IMG/VR virus record: IMGVR_UViG_3300044580_000486
Source: a virus
Strand: one strand, 5' to 3'
Length of the DNA stretch: 35,747 nucleotides
Positions 723-30,857 of this stretch are shown here, in pieces (within the stretch, counting starts at the first letter, position 1; each line of letters opens with the position of its first letter). The position numbers and the translations under genes were made by a program. The notes below the pieces were generated by a model that was not told the DNA's origin, ran no database searches, and was given only the letters and a program-made list of their open reading frames with translations.

Positions 723-1613
723 ATGGGAGGTAATGCAGTAAAAATTTCTCGTCCAGTTACTTTTGAGGAAGCCAAAAAAACAATTAAATGGATAAAAGAA
801 GAGGTTTTTCCTCGGCTAACTGTTATTCCAATAGAGGATAAGGATACAGAAATATTGGGTTCATACGGAAAGAAAAAAGATGGGGCAACTCATGGAGATA
901 TTGATATTGCTGTCTTAAATATTCCAGAACCCAATTCAATGCCAAAAAATGTTGAACTTGATCTTTTAAGACTTGATCTCGAAGGGCTTGGATTTGAAAC
1001 TAAGGTTAACTATGGATTTAGAATTGTTTCATTTGGTTGTCCAATTGGCGGATCAAAAAGCCTTGAAAATTGCGGAGAGATAAATCTCAATATGAATGAT
1101 TTGGTTCAAGTTGATTTAATGTTAACTACAAATCTTTACTGGTCAAGATTCATATATCATTCTCCTGATTTTCGTAAAGAAGAATCCAAATATAAGGGAT
1201 ATTATAGAAATATTCTTCTTATGGCTCTTATTACGGAGCCAACAAAAGAAATTACTAAAACCACTGAAGATGGAGAGGTAGAAGAAATAGAAGTTAATAT
1301 TTTAAGGTATCCCTTCGGTATTTCTCGGGTAAGAAAAAATTTTATGGGTAAAAAAGGTTTGTTGAAGAACGGAAAGAATGTAGAGGGATTTGATTTTTTT
1401 ATCACGAATGACCCCCAAGAGGTTACAGATTTGACTGTCGGGAAACATTATAAACCAAGTGATATTAATACTTTTGAGAAACTCTGGGATATAGTTATGT
1501 CCCCTAATTTTAAGTGGATAAATAAACGAGAAGGCATTATCAATCGATTTGTTGAATGTCTTGAAGAGCAAAAACTCTTAATACCAAAAGAAGTAGAAGA
1601 ATGGAAAAAGTAA
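723..1613 (+). CDS. DNA polymerase beta-superfamily nucleotidyltransferase
   Basis: LGSYGKK...HGDIDIAV (GS + DxD) and a third Asp in VQVDLM. The ATG at 723 (MGGNAV) is preferred over the TTG at 696, which lies in the terminator U-tract. Confidence 0.7.
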   Translation: MGGNAVKISRPVTFEEAKKTIKWIKEEVFPRLTVIPIEDKDTEILGSYGKKKDGATHGDIDIAVLNIPEPNSMPKNVELDLLRLDLEGLGFETKVNYGFRIVSFGCPIGGSKSLENCGEINLNMNDLVQVDLMLTTNLYWSRFIYHSPDFRKEESKYKGYYRNILLMALITEPTKEITKTTEDGEVEEIEVNILRYPFGISRVRKNFMGKKGLLKNGKNVEGFDFFITNDPQEVTDLTVGKHYKPSDINTFEKLWDIVMSPNFKWINKREGIINRFVECLEEQKLLIPKEVEEWKK

Positions 1614-2398
1614 CTGTTTTATATCCTGGTGGATTTAAACCCCCTCATGGAGGTCATATAGATCTTATAAGAAAATATGCTGAACTTCCGGAAGTAAAAG
1701 AAATCTGGGTTCTTGTTGGGCCTGGAGTTCGTGATGGCATTGTTCAAGATCAGGCGGTTCAAATGCTTGAAAAATTAACTGAGGATATTAAAAAAGTAGT
1801 TGTTCAAGGAGTTCCCTGGCCTTCCCCTGTATTAGCAGCTTATAAAATTATTCAAGAGGCAGATAAAGGTTCTTATACTCTTGCAGCTTCCAGCAAAGAA
1901 GAAGAAAATGCTAAAAGGATTACTGATTTCGCATGGAAGCATTCTCCAGAAGGAAAATTCTATAAAGAGGGAATTGATATAGTTCAATTATCTGTAAATA
2001 TTGAGCCTCTGCTATTTCAGGGTCGTTCGGATGAGCATAATGGGGAACCTATTTCAGCAATTGTTCTCAGACAGGATCTTGTTGAAGGGAATATTGAAAA
2101 TTTTATGACAGGTTATCCTGATTCAACCGAAGAACAAATATCATTTATCTGGGATACTCTTGAACAAAATATTGTTTTGCCAGAAGATGATACTGTAAGT
2201 GATGATGCTGTAACAGAAGCTCTTCACACATCAGGAACACCTACAGAAAGTTCTCCTTTAGGATATGATCGTTATCAAGCAGGATATAATTATAAAGCAC
2301 AATTTCCAATTGTCGAGGAAGAGGATGAAGATGAAGAACCTCTTAAAGACTGGGAATGGAACGAAAAAAAGAAAACTTGGATACGTAAAAGAATATAA
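1601..2398 (+). CDS. HxGH-class nucleotidylyltransferase (cytidylyltransferase/NMNAT-like) with acidic C-terminal tail
   Basis: YPGGFKPPHGGH motif and ISAIVLR (ISxTxxR-like) motif. Confidence 0.75.
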   Translation: MEKVTVLYPGGFKPPHGGHIDLIRKYAELPEVKEIWVLVGPGVRDGIVQDQAVQMLEKLTEDIKKVVVQGVPWPSPVLAAYKIIQEADKGSYTLAASSKEEENAKRITDFAWKHSPEGKFYKEGIDIVQLSVNIEPLLFQGRSDEHNGEPISAIVLRQDLVEGNIENFMTGYPDSTEEQISFIWDTLEQNIVLPEDDTVSDDAVTEALHTSGTPTESSPLGYDRYQAGYNYKAQFPIVEEEDEDEEPLKDWEWNEKKKTWIRKRI

Positions 2399-2399
2399 T

Positions 2400-3581
2400 A
2401 TGGCAGGTTCAGCCGGACACATCTTATCCCCCTGGGAAAATACAGATTTAACATTTGGACAAATAAGAGAAATAATTACAAGAGCTTGTTCTGGTACTCT
2501 TGACAATCCTTCTGAAAAATTAGATGGGCAAAATATTATGGCTACTTATAAAAATGGCCATGTTTATATTGCTCGTACCCCCAAACAAGTTCGAAATAAT
2601 GGAGCTGAAGCTATTCGCTGGGATCTTGTAGGGGACTATATGAAAACACCAGAGTCCAGGGAGGCTTATTCTACAGCTGCTCAAGATTTACAAGTGATTT
2701 TCGTTCCAATAGAGGAAAAAATTCTCCAAGATTTCTTTTGTGATGGAAAATATTGGTTAAATATGGAATTATTGACTCCTTTAATGGAAAATATTATCCA
2801 TTATGGAAAAAGTCAGCTAAGAATACATAATATTCAAACAGAGAAAGAAATTGCTGATGTGGACTTAGATTCTTTTTTGAATATTATTAAAATTGCTCAA
2901 AAAGAAGTACAAACCACCTTTGTTATTGATAAAACAAATACGGTTTCTTTTTTAACCGTAGATCCTAAAAGATTTCTTCTGGAATTAGATTCTTTAATGT
3001 TAGACCGTAATTTGGTCGAAGGAAATACATTAAAAGATTTCTTAGCAATAGAATTTGATGAATTCATTGATTATGAATTTGCAATGAATAACGAAGAAGA
3101 TCCCGGGTTAAGATGGGGACTTATTCAAAGATGGGCATATTCTAATAAATCCACAAATATTACAAAGCTATTAACAGGTGTAAATACAAGATTATCTACT
3201 TGGGTAAGGGAAACAGATTCTACTATAGAAGATATTAAAATGATGTTTCTCGATCCAATTATAAATCTCTTTTCGAGAGTAAGTGTTAAAGTTCTTCAAA
3301 ACATAAAAGATATTGCTTCTTCTGATCCCCAAAAATCCGTTGAAATTCTAATTGCGAAAACTAAAGAAGGGATAAATAAGATGAAGGGTTATCGAGGTGA
3401 AAAATCCAAATTTCTAAGAATTCAATTTGAAAGATTCATTAGTGCAGGAGGATTTGAATCGATAGCACCCATCGAAGGGATTGTATTTGAATTTGAAGGT
3501 CAATTATTTAAATTAACCGGTTCATATCTCCCTTTGCTTAAAATAATTAGCTTCTTCCGCTTTGGAAGAGACAAAGAATGA
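2400..3581 (+). CDS. ATP-dependent RNA-ligase-like nucleotidyltransferase (KxDG family)
   Basis: Motif I SEKLDGQNI, III LNMELL, IV IEGIVF, V FKLTG. ATG at 2400 (MAGSAGHIL) directly follows the upstream stop. Confidence 0.65.
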   Translation: MAGSAGHILSPWENTDLTFGQIREIITRACSGTLDNPSEKLDGQNIMATYKNGHVYIARTPKQVRNNGAEAIRWDLVGDYMKTPESREAYSTAAQDLQVIFVPIEEKILQDFFCDGKYWLNMELLTPLMENIIHYGKSQLRIHNIQTEKEIADVDLDSFLNIIKIAQKEVQTTFVIDKTNTVSFLTVDPKRFLLELDSLMLDRNLVEGNTLKDFLAIEFDEFIDYEFAMNNEEDPGLRWGLIQRWAYSNKSTNITKLLTGVNTRLSTWVRETDSTIEDIKMMFLDPIINLFSRVSVKVLQNIKDIASSDPQKSVEILIAKTKEGINKMKGYRGEKSKFLRIQFERFISAGGFESIAPIEGIVFEFEGQLFKLTGSYLPLLKIISFFRFGRDKE

Positions 3582-6112
3582 ATGTTCGTTTTGTAAGAGG
3601 TGGAGAAGTAAAACCTTCAAACATTGGTATCGGAAAATACAAAGGACTTCTTGGATTACCCAGAGAAATGCAAGAGGTTGTTTTGTTATTAAGGAAATTA
3701 GGATATTTTTCGGAGGAGAATGAGGAGCAGCTTCAAACCGGGCGTTTTGATAATGAATATATAAGAAATTTCTTTTATGATTATCAAAATAATCCAAAAT
3801 ATACATATTCATGGAAAGGAGCAAAATTATTATGGGATTCTCTTTTTTGGATTAAAGAGGAATCCGCTCATAATTTTTATATGAATCTCCCGGAAGATAT
3901 TTATCTTCCAGATCAGCTTTCTACAGAAATCTCTTTATCAATAAGCAAGATAGATCCTAATTCTGAGGTTGCTAAAATGCAAGGGGGATCAATAAATGCT
4001 GACTTTACTATAAGAATTTATCGTGATGATAGAAATGAAACAGAAAATGAAACCCCGGAATCTTATAAAAAGGAAGGCATAAAAAGTGATGAAGAATTAA
4101 TAAGTTTTTTAACTAAAAAATTTAGGGATTTGCCTATTTATATTAAGGGTTTTTTGAAAAAATATCATCATGATGATTTAAATGAATCCAGATTCGAAAG
4201 AGGAATAGATCCTAAAAAATCAATGGATATTGGTCTTTCAAGATATGAAAATACTTGGAATAGGATAAATCCAGGAGGAACTCGATATTCACCAGAAGAA
4301 GCTCTCCAATATTTAAGAAAATCTTCTCTTAAACCTTATATTGTTCAGGGTTTTTCAAGGCAGCCAGATTGGACAATTGATTATCAGGTAAAAATGATTA
4401 ATTATTTGATAACTCATGGAAATTTTGCACCCTTTCCCGAAATTCGTCCGGATAGGGAATTACCGGCTCTTACTATGCGAAGAATTTTTGATGAACTAGA
4501 AAAAAGAGGAGTTTTGGAATTTGATCGTTCTCGAAGACCGCATATAGTTTATCTGAAAACCCCCGAAGTAAATGAGTCAGTAAATTTTGAAAGAGGATTA
4601 GATCCAAAAGCATCCATGGGAATTGGAAAAGCCTCTAATCCATTAATTATAACAAGCGTTGAAGAAGAATACTGGGATGGAGGAAGAGTTCAAAGTAACG
4701 AGGATGTTGAAAAAGCAGATCAGAATACTTGGATGAATCCAATTGATGACCCCGTTGAAATAGATTATCTATTTAATAATTGGGCAAAAGTTATAGATCC
4801 TTTCTATGGATTCTGGTATCAAGATCCTGATGATGAAGAAGAATATATCTGGGCTCATCCATCAGAATTAGAGGGGGAATGGATTGAATGGTCTGGAAAC
4901 AAATATTATATTCCTAAAACAAATATTTTTAAGAAAATTGGAGAGGTTGTTGAATCAGTAAATTTTGAAAGAGGCTTAGATCCAAAAGATTCTTTAAAAA
5001 TAGGACATTACCATAATCGAATGCTTGAAAAAGCTAGAGAAGAACTCAAAAATATTTTTGATGATATTCAAAAGAAATATGGTGGTAAAATCGATGTTCG
5101 CAAAGCCACATTTCTTCTTCAAACGGGAATCCGAGCTACTTGGATCCCTCCTACGTCTCCTTATAATTATGGCATTGAATTTTTCGAATCTAAAGACGAC
5201 AATCAATATTATTTTACGCCTATAAAATGGAATAAACCCGGAAAACCATTTGCTAATCTAAATTATGGCGGAAGAAAATCTGCTCGGGAGGCTGCAAATG
5301 AAATGATAGCTCAATGGGGAGGAAAAATAGATGAGTCATTGAATTTTGAAAGAGGACTAGATCCAAAAGCTTCTATGGATATGGGAACAAAAAACAGGAT
5401 TCTTAATAAATTGAAAAGCATCTTTTATAATGAAATCGATCTAGGTAGCAAAAGAGAAATGCAAACTCTATGGGGGTTTTATCCTAAGGGTGAAGATTAT
5501 TATATTTTTAGTTCTGTATATCCTCAGAATTGGATCGAAGATATTTTAAAGGATTATGGAATAGATGAATTTTTAGAATTCCCTGGCAAATATGAAGAAA
5601 AAAGATCAGCTGTATACAAAATAAAATATAAAATAAAGGAGCCTTTCAAAGAGTATTTTAAAAATATAGGGGCCGCTGGACAGCATTTTGTATCTGAATC
5701 GGTAAATTTCGAAAGAGGGATAGAACCTAAAAAAGCTATGAATATTGGTAAAAATAAAAATAATTTTTTTGCTACTATTCCTTCAATGCCTTTTATCAAA
5801 GCTTGTGAAACCTATCCATGGTTTGAAAATATGTTTGCTGGAAAGCAAAAGGATTTACTTACAGCAGCGGCTAAAATGTTACAAGTTCCAGAACAAAAAG
5901 TTGGGGTAGGAATCCGACCAGATAATACCAAAGATACTCCATTAGATCCAAATGATTCCTTATTGGATCAATATATTGAAAGGGATGATTGGCAATATGA
6001 TAAAGAAGATGAGGTTGGGGATTTTGAGTTAATTGGGTCTACATCCGGCGAAATTTATATTAAAGACCAGGAAACAGAAGATATTCTGGGTATTTTAGGA
6101 ACTATTTATTAA
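3578..6112 (+). CDS. Modular protein or putative polyprotein: six modules, each introduced by a conserved (ES)xNFERGxDPKxSMxIG tag
   Basis: 844-aa ORF, ATGA overlap with the upstream gene. Tags at aa 201, 331, 457, 584 and 705, with a degenerate copy at the N-terminus. Confidence 0.8.
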   Translation: MNVRFVRGGEVKPSNIGIGKYKGLLGLPREMQEVVLLLRKLGYFSEENEEQLQTGRFDNEYIRNFFYDYQNNPKYTYSWKGAKLLWDSLFWIKEESAHNFYMNLPEDIYLPDQLSTEISLSISKIDPNSEVAKMQGGSINADFTIRIYRDDRNETENETPESYKKEGIKSDEELISFLTKKFRDLPIYIKGFLKKYHHDDLNESRFERGIDPKKSMDIGLSRYENTWNRINPGGTRYSPEEALQYLRKSSLKPYIVQGFSRQPDWTIDYQVKMINYLITHGNFAPFPEIRPDRELPALTMRRIFDELEKRGVLEFDRSRRPHIVYLKTPEVNESVNFERGLDPKASMGIGKASNPLIITSVEEEYWDGGRVQSNEDVEKADQNTWMNPIDDPVEIDYLFNNWAKVIDPFYGFWYQDPDDEEEYIWAHPSELEGEWIEWSGNKYYIPKTNIFKKIGEVVESVNFERGLDPKDSLKIGHYHNRMLEKAREELKNIFDDIQKKYGGKIDVRKATFLLQTGIRATWIPPTSPYNYGIEFFESKDDNQYYFTPIKWNKPGKPFANLNYGGRKSAREAANEMIAQWGGKIDESLNFERGLDPKASMDMGTKNRILNKLKSIFYNEIDLGSKREMQTLWGFYPKGEDYYIFSSVYPQNWIEDILKDYGIDEFLEFPGKYEEKRSAVYKIKYKIKEPFKEYFKNIGAAGQHFVSESVNFERGIEPKKAMNIGKNKNNFFATIPSMPFIKACETYPWFENMFAGKQKDLLTAAAKMLQVPEQKVGVGIRPDNTKDTPLDPNDSLLDQYIERDDWQYDKEDEVGDFELIGSTSGEIYIKDQETEDILGILGTIY
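4178..5749 (+). repeat. Five dispersed 57-60 nt coding repeats (4178-4234, 4568-4627, 4946-5005, 5327-5386, 5690-5749)
   Basis: Core GA(A/G)TC...TT(T/C)GAAAGAGGx xTAGAxCCxAAA with many synonymous differences; spacing 390, 378, 381 and 363 nt. Confidence 0.9.
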
Positions 6113-6114
6113 TT

Positions 6115-6471
6115 ATGAGAGCACAATTTGTAAGAGGTATCGATCCTAAGGATTCTATGAATATAGGAAATAAGCATGCTAGGGAAGCACAAAAACTCAT
6201 GGCAGCTTTTAAAGAAATTGATCCTTCTTTAGAACCTAAGATTACTGATGATAAAACTCGGGATCAAACAGAGATGGTGGTTGTTTCAATTTTTAAAGAT
6301 AAAAAAATTATCAAATCTCCAAAAGACAAATTTCAAAAGGATATTTATTCTTTATCCTGGGTAAAATCTGGGCTTGAATTTTATATGGCTTCTACATCAT
6401 ATATGGATAGACAAATAACCTTTCCAAAATTGGAAAAAGCTAAGGAAAAAATGAAGGAATATTTGAAGTAA
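6115..6471 (+). CDS. Single-module tagged protein (MRAQFVRGIDPKDSMNIG leader), function unknown
   Basis: 118 aa; begins with the same tag as the modules of the upstream ORF. Confidence 0.8.
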   Translation: MRAQFVRGIDPKDSMNIGNKHAREAQKLMAAFKEIDPSLEPKITDDKTRDQTEMVVVSIFKDKKIIKSPKDKFQKDIYSLSWVKSGLEFYMASTSYMDRQITFPKLEKAKEKMKEYLK

Positions 6472-6496: not shown

Positions 6497-6529
6497 AGAG
6501 GCGAGGCACAAAACTTCGCCTTTGTTTTT
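6497..6529 (+). terminator. Intrinsic terminator
   Basis: AGAGGCGAGG-CACAAAA-CTTCGCCTTT hairpin then TGTTTTT. Confidence 0.7.
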
Positions 6530-8965: not shown

Positions 8966-9431
8966 CGACTTTATAAAAGAAGAGGTCCCTGAAAATAAAG
9001 AAGGCCAGGATACTATGGAAGCTCGTTTCGCTAAGGAAAGAGTTGAATGGAAATCTAAAGTTCAGAATATGTCTACAATGATGAAAAGACTCCCTGACGT
9101 TGCTGAACTTATGACCAATATCTATACAGAACGACAGCAAGCTGTAGAATATTATCATTATCTTTTAACTCTTTTGCAAAAGGTAAATAAAACTTATCGT
9201 AAGCAGTTTTCAGAAAAATATGATTTCTATACTTATAAATCTCAAAAAAGATTTCCTAATGAAAGAGTAAAAGAAATTCAAATAATGGCCGATCTTGGAC
9301 CTATTCTCATTATACGTGAACAAATAGAGAACCACTCTAAATACATCGATAAAACTATCGGAACAATTGACAATATAATTTTTGGCATAAAGTCCAGAAT
9401 TGAAATAGAACAGATAATGAGAGGAAAATAA
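8925..9431 (+). CDS. uvsY: UvsY-like recombination mediator
   Basis: Helical protein with C-terminus YIDKTIGTIDNIIFGIKSRIEIEQIMRGK, matching the UvsY end pattern; lies upstream of uvsW. Confidence 0.7.
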   Translation: MENETLQQIPSSFDDFIKEEVPENKEGQDTMEARFAKERVEWKSKVQNMSTMMKRLPDVAELMTNIYTERQQAVEYYHYLLTLLQKVNKTYRKQFSEKYDFYTYKSQKRFPNERVKEIQIMADLGPILIIREQIENHSKYIDKTIGTIDNIIFGIKSRIEIEQIMRGK

Positions 9432-19518: not shown

Positions 19519-19920
19519 ATGAGAGCTATAACTGTATTCGAATCGCAGAATTTTACTCGTACCGAAGATATAAAAACTAATATGGGTATTGGTATGTGGG
19601 GTCAAATTCGCCAAATTTGTCAAAATAAAGGCAGGACATTTGACAAAAAAAATTTATTGCAAATGTTTTTAACTTGTGCTTCTGAAGATCGAATAGATCT
19701 TATGGATTTTATACTTTCGAGAGGCCTAGATATAAACGGAAGTGATTCTGAAATACTTAGAGTTTTAGGATGGATGGAAAAAGTAGAATTAGGAGCTTTC
19801 TTAATAGTAAATAGAGGAGCTGATGTTGAAAAAGCTATAAGGATTTCTCAGGATAAACATGAATGGAAAACCGAAAGAAGACTTGAAGAAATGAAAGAAC
19901 TTATAAAAAATGAGAGCTAA
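19519..19920 (+). CDS. Tagged ankyrin-repeat-like protein
   Basis: Leader MRAITVFESQNFTRTEDIKTNMGIG; ANK-like DLMDFILSRGLDIN and GAFLIVNRGADV. Confidence 0.6.
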   Translation: MRAITVFESQNFTRTEDIKTNMGIGMWGQIRQICQNKGRTFDKKNLLQMFLTCASEDRIDLMDFILSRGLDINGSDSEILRVLGWMEKVELGAFLIVNRGADVEKAIRISQDKHEWKTERRLEEMKELIKNES

Positions 19921-20840: not shown

Positions 20841-21296
20841 ATGGCTAAAGTAAAAATGGTAGCAGAATCTCTTAATGAGAGTATGTATGCAAGGTTAAAT
20901 GAAGAAATGAATGCAGTTTCTGAATCCATTCTTAATGACTTCATGTCTGGTCTCAAAAAGGCTTTTGCTGGTTTAAATAAGCAATATGAAGCTCTTGATA
21001 AAACGAATGATAAAGCTGTCAGAGAATTTGCATGGGATGTTGCCCTAAAAACTTATGTTGCTGATGCACCAGAAGCTGGAAGAAAATCCCTTAAAATGTG
21101 GGCTCAGAAGGCTCCTCTAGAAATGCTTGTTAAGTTCCTTGAAAAGGCTTCAGGAGATAAATTCTATGGAAGAACTTCTCCTACTTATGTTCAAGGTAAA
21201 CTTCAGGTTGGTTGGAGACCTATGAAAGAGCTTAAACTTGAAAATCCCTTTGCTTCAGGCGGAACTAGCGGACATACTGCTTCAGGTGGAGTTTAA
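20841..21296 (+). CDS. Hypothetical protein with MAKVKMVAESLNES leader
   Basis: 151-aa ORF after a GAATATATAA element. Confidence 0.75.
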   Translation: MAKVKMVAESLNESMYARLNEEMNAVSESILNDFMSGLKKAFAGLNKQYEALDKTNDKAVREFAWDVALKTYVADAPEAGRKSLKMWAQKAPLEMLVKFLEKASGDKFYGRTSPTYVQGKLQVGWRPMKELKLENPFASGGTSGHTASGGV

Positions 21297-21310: not shown

Positions 21311-22018
21311 ATGGCTGGAACTCGAGGAAAATTTGTAAGAGGTCGTAATCCTATGAGAACCCTGGATCTGGGTATCTCTAATAGGATCTTTCAATCTTGT
21401 GGCAAACCCTATCAAGAAGGAGGAGGATATTCTTTCAATTATTACGGTGCAGAAAATTGGATGGATATTATAAAATGGCTTTTGGATCATGGCTATAATG
21501 CTGAAGAAACTGAAGAAGTTATGAGAAGTAAACTCATGAGATGGGCTTCAGATGATGCAGGCCATTCAGATGAAGATTGTACTCTAGAAGATTTTCTCAA
21601 ATTTAACAATCAACTTTCTGGGGGAGGAAAAACTCAAGTGGATGTTTTTTTGGATGAATATTTTCCAGATCCTTCAAGAAAAGATAGAATCATAAATGAA
21701 AATGTTGCTGCTCCTATGGCAACATTAGCAAATACCCCAGGAATGGGTAATGCTGTACCAGCTCAGCAAGCCGCTACAACCGGTAATCAATTTTATCAGC
21801 CAGCTACCAAAGGATCCGGGGATTTATGGGGTGGGAAAGGTCAGAAGAAAAAAAGAAAGGGGAGAAAAGTTAAATTAGTAAAAGAATCTCTTAATGAGGA
21901 GAATATAAACCCTTATGACAAATTAGGAATGTCAATGGCTAAGAAAATGGGCATCAAACCTCCTTTTAAAAAGAAAAAGGATAAGAAAAACCAAAATTCG
22001 ATGTCTCAGAAAGTATGA
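21311..22018 (+). CDS. Tagged multi-segment hypothetical protein
   Basis: N-terminal GKFVRGRNPMRTLDLG tag; internal IINE-NVAAPMATLANTPGMG and KVKLVKESLNE. Confidence 0.75.
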   Translation: MAGTRGKFVRGRNPMRTLDLGISNRIFQSCGKPYQEGGGYSFNYYGAENWMDIIKWLLDHGYNAEETEEVMRSKLMRWASDDAGHSDEDCTLEDFLKFNNQLSGGGKTQVDVFLDEYFPDPSRKDRIINENVAAPMATLANTPGMGNAVPAQQAATTGNQFYQPATKGSGDLWGGKGQKKKRKGRKVKLVKESLNEENINPYDKLGMSMAKKMGIKPPFKKKKDKKNQNSMSQKV

Positions 22019-22392
22019 AAACTAAATTAGTAAAAGAATCCTTATCCCCAAGTGAAGCAGTATATGGGTATGCTTCCTGGTTAACATCTCGAGAAAATCC
22101 AATTACCATGTCTAGTCATCATGAAGCATCTATTGTAGCTGATACTGTAGATGAATTTATAAAAAAACAAAATTTAGAATCCCCCAGAGAAAACTGGACG
22201 GATGAATTAATCCCGATGAGGGAATCCGGAATTAACGAAACCATAAAAATGAAGGGTCATGATTATGATGTTTTTAAGATAGGGAATTTATCTAAGATAT
22301 TTGCCGGCAGAGAAGGAATTCTTGGAAAAGATGGAGAACTTATTTCTTGGGATATAGTTAAACAATTAATGCAAAAATTTAACGTTAGATAA
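22015..22392 (+). CDS. Hypothetical protein with MKTKLVKESL leader
   Basis: ATGA overlap; 125 aa. Confidence 0.75.
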   Translation: MKTKLVKESLSPSEAVYGYASWLTSRENPITMSSHHEASIVADTVDEFIKKQNLESPRENWTDELIPMRESGINETIKMKGHDYDVFKIGNLSKIFAGREGILGKDGELISWDIVKQLMQKFNVR

Positions 22393-28926: not shown

Positions 28927-29256
28927 ATGGAAAGATTAGTTTGCGAATCTTTGGAAGAAGTTTTTGAAGAACTTATTGAAGAAGGTAAAAAAGATCCTAG
29001 AGCTCATGTTAGAAATAGGGGAGATGTTGTATTTCCAGCAGGAAGTAAAAACGTAAAAGATGATAAAGATCATTTTCCAATTAACAGTGCAGCTCAAGCA
29101 AGAAATGCTTTAGCAAGAGCAAATCAATATAGCTCTGCTCCTGAATGGTATTCGGGATCGCTCGACAGTCTTGTTAAAAGAGTAGCTAGCAAAGTTCATG
29201 CTAAATATCCTTCTATTAAAGTTTCTAAAGCAGCTAAAAGACCGGGAAAGAATTAA
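28927..29256 (+). CDS. Small basic protein with HFPINxxxQARNALARANQ motif (DUF6582-like, tentative)
   Basis: Leader MERLVCESLEE; motif recalled from uncharacterised phage proteins. Confidence 0.55.
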   Translation: MERLVCESLEEVFEELIEEGKKDPRAHVRNRGDVVFPAGSKNVKDDKDHFPINSAAQARNALARANQYSSAPEWYSGSLDSLVKRVASKVHAKYPSIKVSKAAKRPGKN

Positions 29257-30857
29257 TGCTCGTAAAGGAAAGAGTTAATTTCATTAGAGGTGGCGGAGAT
29301 GAAGAATCCGTTAAAACTAATCTATTTGGAATTAGAGTGGGCCAAATTGTAATCCCCTCGAAGCTTCCCCCATTTCCAAATTCAAGAAGTGGAGTTACTA
29401 TGCCAGCTTATTTAGTTGAATTTATTCATGATGGGGAGGAGGGAAAAAGATCCCTAAGACTTCTAGGTATTGGATATTTTTATAATTTAAATTTTCGAAA
29501 TCCCGGGGATACACCTTCCCAGTGGTTTAGTTTTTCTTCGGGATTTTCCACATCTTTAGGAAATGAAGAAGATTATAAACCAATTGATTCATCTTTAAAA
29601 GAAATGATACTCGATTCTTTAAAAAAAGAGCCGGAAAGAAGAACCTGGGAAGTCCATAAAATGAATTTTTATGATAGATCTAATGGAGCAAAAATATTAT
29701 TAAAAGAGGAACTTTTTCATCGATCTTCAACTAAATCCCAAATAAAAGATAAATTAATCGGGTTTCGTCCTGGCAGTATTATAACATCAGCAGAGCCTTG
29801 GCCTGAAAATAAACCTTATAAAGAGGTTTATATGTATATTAAAAAGGGAGAAAAATTTAATGACCAGGGAAATCCTATAATAGTTACTTATATCGGGGCT
29901 CTTTCTAAAAGGGATGGCAAATTAAGCCAATTTCTTGTAAGACATAAAAAAATGTTAGGGGAAACAGTTATATGGGAAGAAAATAAAAGATCTCTAACTC
30001 CTGAAGAATTACAAAAAGTACAAAAAACTTTTGCGGAAATTCCAAGTTACCCCCAAAAAATATATGATGAAACTGGAATAAAACCATCCTTAAACGAATC
30101 CATAAATTTTGAAAGAGGAATAAATCCTAAAGTTGCTATGGGATTAGGGGTATATTCTCCTGGCCGTCTTTTTAAATATGAAGATAGTCATGCTGTTAGA
30201 CCCGAGTTTCCCTCTGTTTTTGCATATATTGAAAGAGATAAAACATATAATTACTATTTTTATATAGGAAGATTTATTAATCCTAAAGAGTCATTAACTG
30301 GAACTAATTTTACATTTGGGGGAAGCCCTCAAAGTGATAATAGATATAATCTCCAAAAAATAAAGGATGATCACATGGTTCTTTTATCAGAAAAAGAAAA
30401 GAAAGAATTAAGAAAGGTCTTTTCTGATGAAAATAATCAGGACATTGTTGATTCCTTGCAAAGAAAAATGAAAGCAAAAATCCTTTTAGAGTCTTTATCA
30501 TTTCAAAGAGGAAAATCTGAAAGGGAGATAAAAGATTTATTAGGAGAATGGAAACCAGGAAAATTAGTAATAAACCCCCATACAAATATAATATATGTTT
30601 TTCTTGGAATGCGAGATGAAGAAAATGCAGAAATATTTTCTCTAGGACATTTAAGAAATATTGGGAATTTCCCAAAAACCTATCTCAAAAAATATAAGAA
30701 AGTAACAGATTCAGAGTGGACAAGAACTAATCTGAAACCTACAAGAAATTTAAGGACTTTAACTGATGAGGAATATCGTTTAGTAAAGCCTTCTTTATAT
30801 CAAGAATATATAAATAAAGTCAAAGAAAATTTTGGCATAGACATTATTATACCATGA
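29256..30857 (+). CDS. Four-module tagged protein or putative polyprotein; modules homologous to each other
   Basis: Tags at aa 1, 149, 279 and 410 (nt 29256, 29700, 30090, 30483), including LNESINFERGINPKVAMGLG. Confidence 0.8.
   Translation: MLVKERVNFIRGGGDEESVKTNLFGIRVGQIVIPSKLPPFPNSRSGVTMPAYLVEFIHDGEEGKRSLRLLGIGYFYNLNFRNPGDTPSQWFSFSSGFSTSLGNEEDYKPIDSSLKEMILDSLKKEPERRTWEVHKMNFYDRSNGAKILLKEELFHRSSTKSQIKDKLIGFRPGSIITSAEPWPENKPYKEVYMYIKKGEKFNDQGNPIIVTYIGALSKRDGKLSQFLVRHKKMLGETVIWEENKRSLTPEELQKVQKTFAEIPSYPQKIYDETGIKPSLNESINFERGINPKVAMGLGVYSPGRLFKYEDSHAVRPEFPSVFAYIERDKTYNYYFYIGRFINPKESLTGTNFTFGGSPQSDNRYNLQKIKDDHMVLLSEKEKKELRKVFSDENNQDIVDSLQRKMKAKILLESLSFQRGKSEREIKDLLGEWKPGKLVINPHTNIIYVFLGMRDEENAEIFSLGHLRNIGNFPKTYLKKYKKVTDSEWTRTNLKPTRNLRTLTDEEYRLVKPSLYQEYINKVKENFGIDIIIP

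Follow-up and report, generated by a model that had tools for sequence, protein, structure and literature searches.

A conserved peptide tag heads a large protein family in Lak-related giant phages and joins six of its members in one open reading frame

In a 35,747-nucleotide (nt) stretch of viral DNA (IMG/VR record IMGVR_UViG_3300044580_000486; the whole stretch is called the window below), open reading frame (ORF) 3578–6112 on the + strand encodes a protein of 844 amino acids (aa) in which a 20-residue peptide tag recurs between dissimilar segments. We found that this tag is a selected, floppy N-terminal extension heading a very large and fast-diversifying family of accessory proteins, carried by T4-type phages of ~400 kb that are related to the Lak megaphages. 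ORF 3578–6112 is an in-frame fusion of six neighbouring genes of this family, by which the tag turns into a linker. The initial annotation of the ORF as a tag-joined polyprotein was right in that unrelated modules are joined by a selected tag, but the tag is not special to this ORF and sits chiefly on stand-alone proteins. As to function, we put forward a tentative proposal, which we hold to be a little short of probable: the tag would combine an address with a cutting signal for the prohead protease, and the modules would enter the prohead and travel with the DNA as effectors.

Results

An 844-residue ORF made of six modules

A six-frame scan located five strong copies of the tag and one degenerate N-terminal copy in the uninterrupted frame of ORF 3578–6112. 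The Phe of the strong copies lies at aa 206, 337, 463, 590, and 711, placing the tag starts at aa 200/201, 331, 457, 584, and 705. Successive Phe residues are 131, 126, 127, and 121 aa apart, and the stretch between the last one and the C-terminus measures 134 aa, in agreement with the recurrence, positions, and regular spacing first described. The start of the gene overlaps the stop of an upstream ligase-like gene by 4 nt. The degenerate tag (MNVRFVRGGEVKPSNIGIG; 3578–3634), which belongs to a start class with Met at -4 and is without the Glu site discussed below, is followed by the ~180-aa body of module 1 (3635–4174), tag 1 (aa 200–219, DLNESRFERGIDPKKSMDIG; 4175–4234), the body of module 2 (4235–4567), tag 2 (aa 331–350, VNESVNFERGLDPKASMGIG; 4568–4627), and the body of module 3 (4628–4945). 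Tag 3 (aa 457–476; 4946–5005), tag 4 (aa 584–603; 5327–5386), and tag 5 (aa 705–724; 5690–5749) precede the bodies of modules 4 (5006–5326), 5 (5387–5689), and 6 (5750–6112), respectively. The adjoining free-standing gene on the same strand (6115–6471) encodes 118 aa and opens with MRAQFVRGIDPKDSMNIG, its tag occupying aa 1–18; both this tagged gene and the degenerate N-terminal copy had been pointed out earlier. A protein from an independent assembly (P0001) is likewise 844 aa long and 99% identical to the ORF product, which argues that the frame is no accident of assembly.

Selection acts on the tag peptide

The consensus of 132 tag copies from 31 metagenome relatives is [LIV]-x-E-S-[LIV]-N/D-F-E-R-G-h-D-P-K-x-S/A-M-x-I-G. 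Phe, Arg, and Gly were each present in all 132 copies, the final Gly in 131, and Pro in 129, and Asp at +5 was substituted in 29. Ahead of the Phe, Glu occupied position -4 in 129 of the 132 copies, Ser position -3 in 100, and Val, Leu, or Ile position -6 (P3, two before the Glu) in 106. Copies in the window scored 31–48 bits against a 24-column hidden Markov model (HMM) of the tag. A wide search with a 30-column profile matched 1,679 protein-cluster representatives among 1.84 billion at E ≤ 0.001, and 485 at E ≤ 1e-10, with up to 12 tags in one protein. These scores and matches exclude a chance origin of the tag.

Among the seven tags of the window, 89 of 235 pairs of codons for the same residue (38%) used different codons, all four GGN codons were in use for the invariant Gly, and the longest identical run between any two tags did not exceed 20 bases. 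Selection thus acts on the peptide and not on the DNA, as had been proposed from the synonymous variation. Tagged ORFs showed no excess of the motif [LIV]-x-E at their C-termini (10/120 vs. 29/371, p = 0.85), indicating that the Glu site goes with the downstream tag and not with the upstream module.

Neither Pfam nor PHROGs held a model for the tag or for ORF 3578–6112, a PDB sequence search gave no match to the tag, and GenBank phages gave none when searched by DNA, protein, and tag consensus (tblastn, 50,697 phage records). Nor did the searchable literature contain a description of the tag, in line with the earlier impression that it was new.

The tag is primarily an N-terminal peptide of small proteins

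A strict consensus DNA pattern matched 63 stretches on ~40 IMG/VR contigs, many of which were matched repeatedly at scattered places. On the viral contigs so matched, 109 of 151 tag-bearing ORFs carried a single tag, which nearly always lay within 13 residues of the start. Where the tag was N-terminal (98 ORFs), the start Met preceded the Phe by one of a few set distances, namely 2 (MN-F), 4 (MRAQ-F), 8 (MIVRENIN-F), 9 (MKLVxESLN-F), or 11 (MKAQFVYENMD-F), so that the genes start either at the proposed cut or with a leader of 5–8 residues ending in [LIV]-x-E. The prevalence of single-tag ORFs and the small number of start distances show that the tag is primarily the N-terminal peptide of small proteins, whose bodies measure about 100–130 aa. 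Adjacent genes of this kind are frequently joined in frame, and multi-tag proteins are such fusions.

The gene starts also bear on whether the tag is a protein signal at all, or instead a nascent-chain element causing ribosome pausing or bond skipping at domain borders and gene starts. About 20 conserved residues, Asp-Pro among them, precede each body, and this length would fit the exit tunnel. However, most copies stand at gene starts, with no upstream domain, the Asp at +5 is the residue substituted in over a fifth of the copies, and we know of no bacterial example of peptide-bond skipping; we consider such an element very improbable.

Module bodies are diverse

All-against-all blastp of the seven bodies in and next to the ORF gave nothing better than E = 0.4, and profile–profile comparison of the seven module families by hhalign, based on small family alignments, gave probabilities of at most 6%; the claim that the intervening segments are unrelated therefore stands at the sequence level. 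Across the family, 386 distinct sampled bodies fell into 154 sequence clusters. Pfam searches of 69 related multi-tag proteins identified ankyrin repeats in eight and GNAT acetyltransferase domains in three, besides two single weak matches, to FlgT_C (1.6e-4) and Transcrip_reg (8e-4). Apart from these, leucine-rich repeats (LRRs) were essentially the only domains that Pfam recognised in the family.

AlphaFold2 (AF2) prediction of the whole 844-aa protein, from an alignment of four near-identical sequences, was unusable (mean predicted local distance difference test score, pLDDT, 30.8), which is why the unrelatedness of the six bodies is not extended to the level of folds; in this low-confidence model, several modules may have a helix-sheet-helix layout in common. 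The 118-aa protein encoded at 6115–6471 was more amenable. It has 22 homologues of similar length, 20 of which start directly with MRAQ or MRAH, the remaining two having a longer called N-terminus in one case and a beginning past the motif in the other. With this 22-homologue alignment, AF2 confidently predicted a body in which a five-strand sheet is preceded by a long helix and followed by a C-terminal one (overall pLDDT 82). The pLDDT values were 49 for tag residues 1–10 and 62 for residues 11–20, so the tag is a floppy extension outside the body fold. Structural searches with this model gave no match above chance with Foldseek against PDB (best E = 0.067), Foldseek against BFVD (best E = 0.008, an uncharacterised phage G protein), or VIA-align (best Z = 8.6), and the ESM Atlas returned no informative match. 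Five of the 22 homologues of window 6115–6468 end in ...LIINES/A/RKI-stop or run on (IINESAICKRTRS); such C-termini, made up of the first half of a tag, look like the scar of an earlier fusion with a module further downstream.

Whole tagged units vary between relatives

G001, the nearest record, aligns collinearly with the window (82–98% identity). It is missing module 1 (3585–4206), which is found in another relative (P0004), and module 3 (4611–4950), whose deletion ends within tags 2 and 3, the alignment blocks overlapping by 38 bases within a tag. Conversely, G001 has 760 additional bases ahead of the 118-aa gene and an additional 1.19 kb at window tag 30096–30140, where the blocks again overlap within the tag. 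This last tag belongs to a second tagged multi-module gene (29256–30857, + strand), whose strong tag lies at 30090–30149 and whose start, like the region near 30480, bears a weak copy. Three indels relative to G001 have their ends exactly within tags.

Modules also change their place. Module 2, internal in the window, opens the protein in G001 and P0003 (MDAKFIKGQDPRKAMDIG...), and the module after window tag 30108, likewise internal here, is a separate gene starting MIVRESINFERG in G001 and in L093. Other relatives carry homologues of modules 2–6 in varied sets and orders, and module 6 is the final module wherever it is present (P0002–P0005, P0147, P0155). Relatives therefore differ by whole tag-plus-module units with ends in tags. 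Such ends and the differing module content are what recombination at tags predicts, and the variable content and shuffling foreseen in the initial annotation were both found.

The indel ends within tags would also suit DNA-level repeats, forming a recombination or regulatory cassette, and the helix-sheet-helix layout that several modules may share would suit a tandem repeat of one diverged domain. Both versions are largely refuted and scarcely credible to us: the 38% synonymous differences and the short identity between tags (≤20 nt) speak against the former, and the latter is contradicted by the absence of similarity between bodies by blastp or hhalign and by the different folds (ankyrin, LRR, GNAT) of bodies elsewhere in the family.

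One strict-pattern scan of 185,579 species genomes, with a pattern that catches only consensus tags, gave a single tag match, on a 2.9-kb phage-like contig, and no host copy of the tag. This contig, L093 (MWBV01000048.1, 2,945 bp), was binned into the anaerobic-digester metagenome-assembled genome (MAG) 'Candidatus Diapherotrites archaeon ADurb.Bin253', probably in error; it represents a piece of the phage lineage described here. It holds the G001-type version of window 29256–30857, with ~14 leucine-rich-like 22-aa repeats (TSLPDNLTVGG) after the tag.

The carriers are T4-type phages related to Lak megaphages

The window encodes RNA ligase-like, gp32, primase, helicase, family-B polymerase, ribonucleotide reductase, dUTPase, and kinase proteins. 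CheckV rated G001 as 15% complete at 61 kb and larger tag-carrying records as 33–34% complete at 133–137 kb, and one homologue (P0191) lies on a 376-kb contig, which had no match in IMG/VR. The completeness estimates and this contig indicate genomes of about 400 kb. Gp23-family capsid proteins (PF07068) were detected in G002 and G003 (1e-31 to 8e-38; 8e-38 in G002), and the G002 capsid protein is closest to its counterpart in the Prevotella Lak phages, with 48.6% identity across 98% of its length. A gp21-type protease (Peptidase_S77, PF03420) was identified above cut-off in the tag-carrying G002 (3e-16), and G004 gave a protease match below threshold only. The 32 tags that G002 carries in 133 kb form islands apart from the head genes.

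In G002, the protease domain (L074 1456–3369; G002 60768–63302) is fused to a ~630-aa repetitive, coiled-coil-like, scaffold-like tail, and the fusion gene lies directly upstream of the capsid gene. It is probably protease and scaffold in one 844-aa protein.

Gene starts in the window (e.g. 3578, 6115, 6610, 7674) are without a Shine-Dalgarno sequence, as in Bacteroidota, and TAG was never a stop in 29 long window ORFs. Together with the Lak-like capsid protein, these sequence features suggest a Bacteroidota host. No stop-codon recoding was seen.

A proposed role in prohead loading and cutting

The T4 prohead protease gp21 cuts after Glu in (L/I)xE contexts and matures capsid-internal proteins. 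Judged by sequence, the residues ahead of the tag, hydrophobic-x-Glu and then Ser, match this rule nearly without exception. The G002 capsid protein has L-N-E-A-E-M-G-G at the place of L-T-E-A-E-I-G-G in T4 gp23, and T4 gp24 starts MAKINELLRE-S, the cut positions in gp23 and gp24 being those that we take as established. The leader class MKAQFVYE is similar to the T4 capsid-targeting sequence (CTS), a likeness that serves as a lead and not as a test.

A further link comes from gene 21311–22018 (+ strand, 235 aa), which carries a degenerate tag (MAGTRGKFVRGRNPMRTLDLG). Its aa 132–173 (nt 21704–21829) are 79% identical (E = 3e-18) to residues 49–90 of the G002 capsid protein, the N-terminal arm located downstream of the presumed maturation site. 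IINE, which precedes it, and KLVKESLNE flank the copy, and the G001 orthologue retains it. Its presence ties the tag family to head assembly, although the gene sits among replication genes; the copy could act as a decoy, as a handle for co-assembly, or as a substrate of the protease. On either side, genes 20841–21296 and 22015–22392 start MAKVKMVAESLNESMYARLNEEMNAVSES... and MKTKLVKESL..., respectively, and contain dense hydrophobic-x-Glu-Ser sites; their products resemble T4 prohead-core proteins and the gp24 leader MAKINELLRES.

On these grounds, we propose that the tag may be an address that would, most likely, direct loading into the prohead core, like the CTS of T4 internal proteins, and that the [LIV]-x-Glu just ahead of it may be a site for the gp21-type prohead protease. 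Candidate cuts after Glu203, Glu333, Glu459, Glu586, and Glu707 in tags 1 to 5 would release six pieces of 121–203 aa. Pieces 2–6 would begin S-x-N-F-E-R-G (S-R-F-E-R-G in piece 2), which is the N-terminus of the stand-alone genes, and would pass with the DNA into the host as effectors. Since genes start at the cut or with a leader that has [LIV]-x-E at its end, the mature N-terminus would be identical in fused and unfused forms.

Several observations weigh against this proposal. The polyprotein gene lies outside any head-gene block; it shares an operon with three nucleotidyltransferase/ligase-like genes, next to gp32 and primase, and is translationally coupled to the ligase-like gene. The T4 late-promoter motif TATAAATA was absent upstream of it and showed no enrichment across the window, nor did the regions upstream of 96 tagged genes share any enriched promoter or k-mer motif. 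The S77 protease gene was found in G002 and not in the window or G001, both of which are fragments. At about 30 tags per 130 kb, a genome would have about 100 cargo species, a large number for a capsid. Bodies of the family are mostly acidic (54% with an isoelectric point below 6), as opposed to the basic internal proteins of T4. About a third of the stand-alone tagged genes (start classes 2–4) are without any Glu site. Finally, the best-conserved 16 residues follow the Glu and would be retained, unlike the T4 targeting peptide.

Some of these points, namely the operon without a late-promoter motif, the conserved core after the Glu, and the stand-alone genes without a Glu, would be natural if the fusion stayed uncut, as beads on a string. 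The tag would then be a linear motif binding a common phage or host hub by strand addition, stand-alone proteins would carry a single copy, and the multivalent fusions, expressed alongside replication and RNA-repair genes, would act in the cytoplasm with neither proteolysis nor packaging. Like linear motifs in general, the tag comes out disordered in the AF2 model; its alternating V-x-E-x-V-x-F-x-R fits an amphipathic strand, and bodies of the ankyrin, LRR, and GNAT kinds are modules typical of cytoplasmic interactions. We nevertheless judge this arrangement rather unlikely. It leaves unexplained the near-invariant Glu with a hydrophobic P3, which is the rule of the lineage's own protease family, the gene starts quantised at or just before the Glu, and the capsid-arm copy in a family member. 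The frequent fusion and fission among close relatives would also be easier if the products ended up identical.

Alternatively, the protein could be a true polyprotein processed in the cytoplasm, where a different endopeptidase of the phage or the host would recognise the tag and the pieces would act within the producing cell. The conserved junction peptide, as in viral polyproteins, and the early-looking gene context would agree with this. On the other hand, no peptidase domain was found in ORF 3578–6112, its neighbours, or the 69 related multi-tag proteins, the site matches the prohead protease rule, and stand-alone genes with a 5-residue leader would gain nothing from such cutting. We regard cytoplasmic cutting as improbable.

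Prohead loading and cutting may further be combined with the module turnover. One retained 20-residue peptide would then send ~100 small effector modules per genome into the prohead, the protease site would allow them to be encoded singly or as polyproteins, and the tag would double as a recombination joint. As part of this fuller scheme, which is possible but more doubtful than the loading and cutting on their own, module swapping at tag joints between genes and phages might, by analogy, be a protein-level counterpart of exon shuffling for injected anti-host effectors.

Neighbouring genes in the window

The transcription unit containing the polyprotein gene and the 118-aa gene is bounded by terminator-like hairpins at 669–691 and 6497–6523 (+ strand), the latter closing the unit. 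The three nucleotidyltransferase/ligase-like genes at 723–3581 are coupled to one another and gave weak PHROG matches only (cytidyltransferase-like). Elsewhere, genes at 9431, 19519, 19910, and 20271 begin with a nearly identical 14–17 nt, ATGAGAGCTAWAAC (MRAK/MRAI), and one of the four encodes a polynucleotide-kinase/HAD-like enzyme. At 19910 and 20271, ATGAGAGCTAA doubles as the ...ES-stop ending of the upstream gene in another frame.

Discussion

Whatever its mechanism, the tag marks a large undescribed protein family and a Lak-related lineage from anaerobic-digester samples. If it is a loading-and-cutting signal, more than 1,000 otherwise unannotatable giant-phage proteins would become candidate injected effectors. 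It would also account for how giant phages build and reshuffle their effector arsenals, and would provide, like the T4 CTS, a portable means of packaging foreign proteins.

Several known systems share part of this organisation. Tandem-repeat proteins differ in that the repeated bodies here are without detectable similarity (blastp E > 0.4, hhalign ≤6%). Viral polyproteins with protease-specific junctions resemble the ORF, in which a single conserved motif likewise marks each border between modules. Polyvalent proteins of phages and conjugative elements, for which delivery with the DNA, proteolytic release, and a role in host conflict have been proposed (Iyer, Burroughs, Anand, de Souza, and Aravind, 2017; PMC5512222), likewise join many unrelated domains in one phage polypeptide, two to fifteen in their case and six bodies here. 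They contain embedded metallopeptidases and known enzymatic domains and have no common junction peptide, whereas every junction in ORF 3578–6112 is the same 20-residue tag, and neither a peptidase nor a polyvalent-protein hallmark domain (MPTase, DarA-N, ParB-like, and others) was found in it by Pfam.

The head ejection proteins of phiKZ and SPN3US are similar in belonging to giant phages with gp21-related proteases, and many inner-head proteins of those phages are processed. Their diverged ejection-protein paralogues are cut by gp175/gp245 at (S/A/G)-x-Glu and have conserved N-termini, e.g. MANFVKSKLARESVE in gp53/gp54 (PMC5694885). Unlike the modules described here, which are dissimilar bodies following a short tag and can be fused into polyproteins, they are unfused and true paralogues, with propeptides of more than 100 aa.

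The closest known system is that of the T4 CTS and internal proteins. In T4, the CTS (MKTYQEFIAE), with a single adjoining cut, heads otherwise unrelated internal proteins (PMC8442874, PMC3012670). The phages described here share with T4, in the comparison with IPI–III, Alt, and gp24, the T4-type genome encoding both a capsid protein of the gp23 family and an S77 protease, one short N-terminal peptide on otherwise unrelated small proteins, a hydrophobic-x-Glu site at the leader (here a feature of the sequence only), and a gene set that is hypervariable between relatives. No sequence homology to the T4 internal proteins or Alt was found (no PHROG or Pfam match, and no tblastn match among the 50,697 phage records). 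The T4 targeting peptide precedes the cut and is discarded, whereas the core NFERGxDPKxSMxIG follows the Glu, the best-conserved F, R, G, P, and G sitting 4–17 residues past it, and many tag-family members are without a Glu site. Compared with the T4 internal proteins, the tag family is hundreds of times larger (1,679 clusters, ~100 copies per genome), and its members are fused, with up to 12 modules in one protein.

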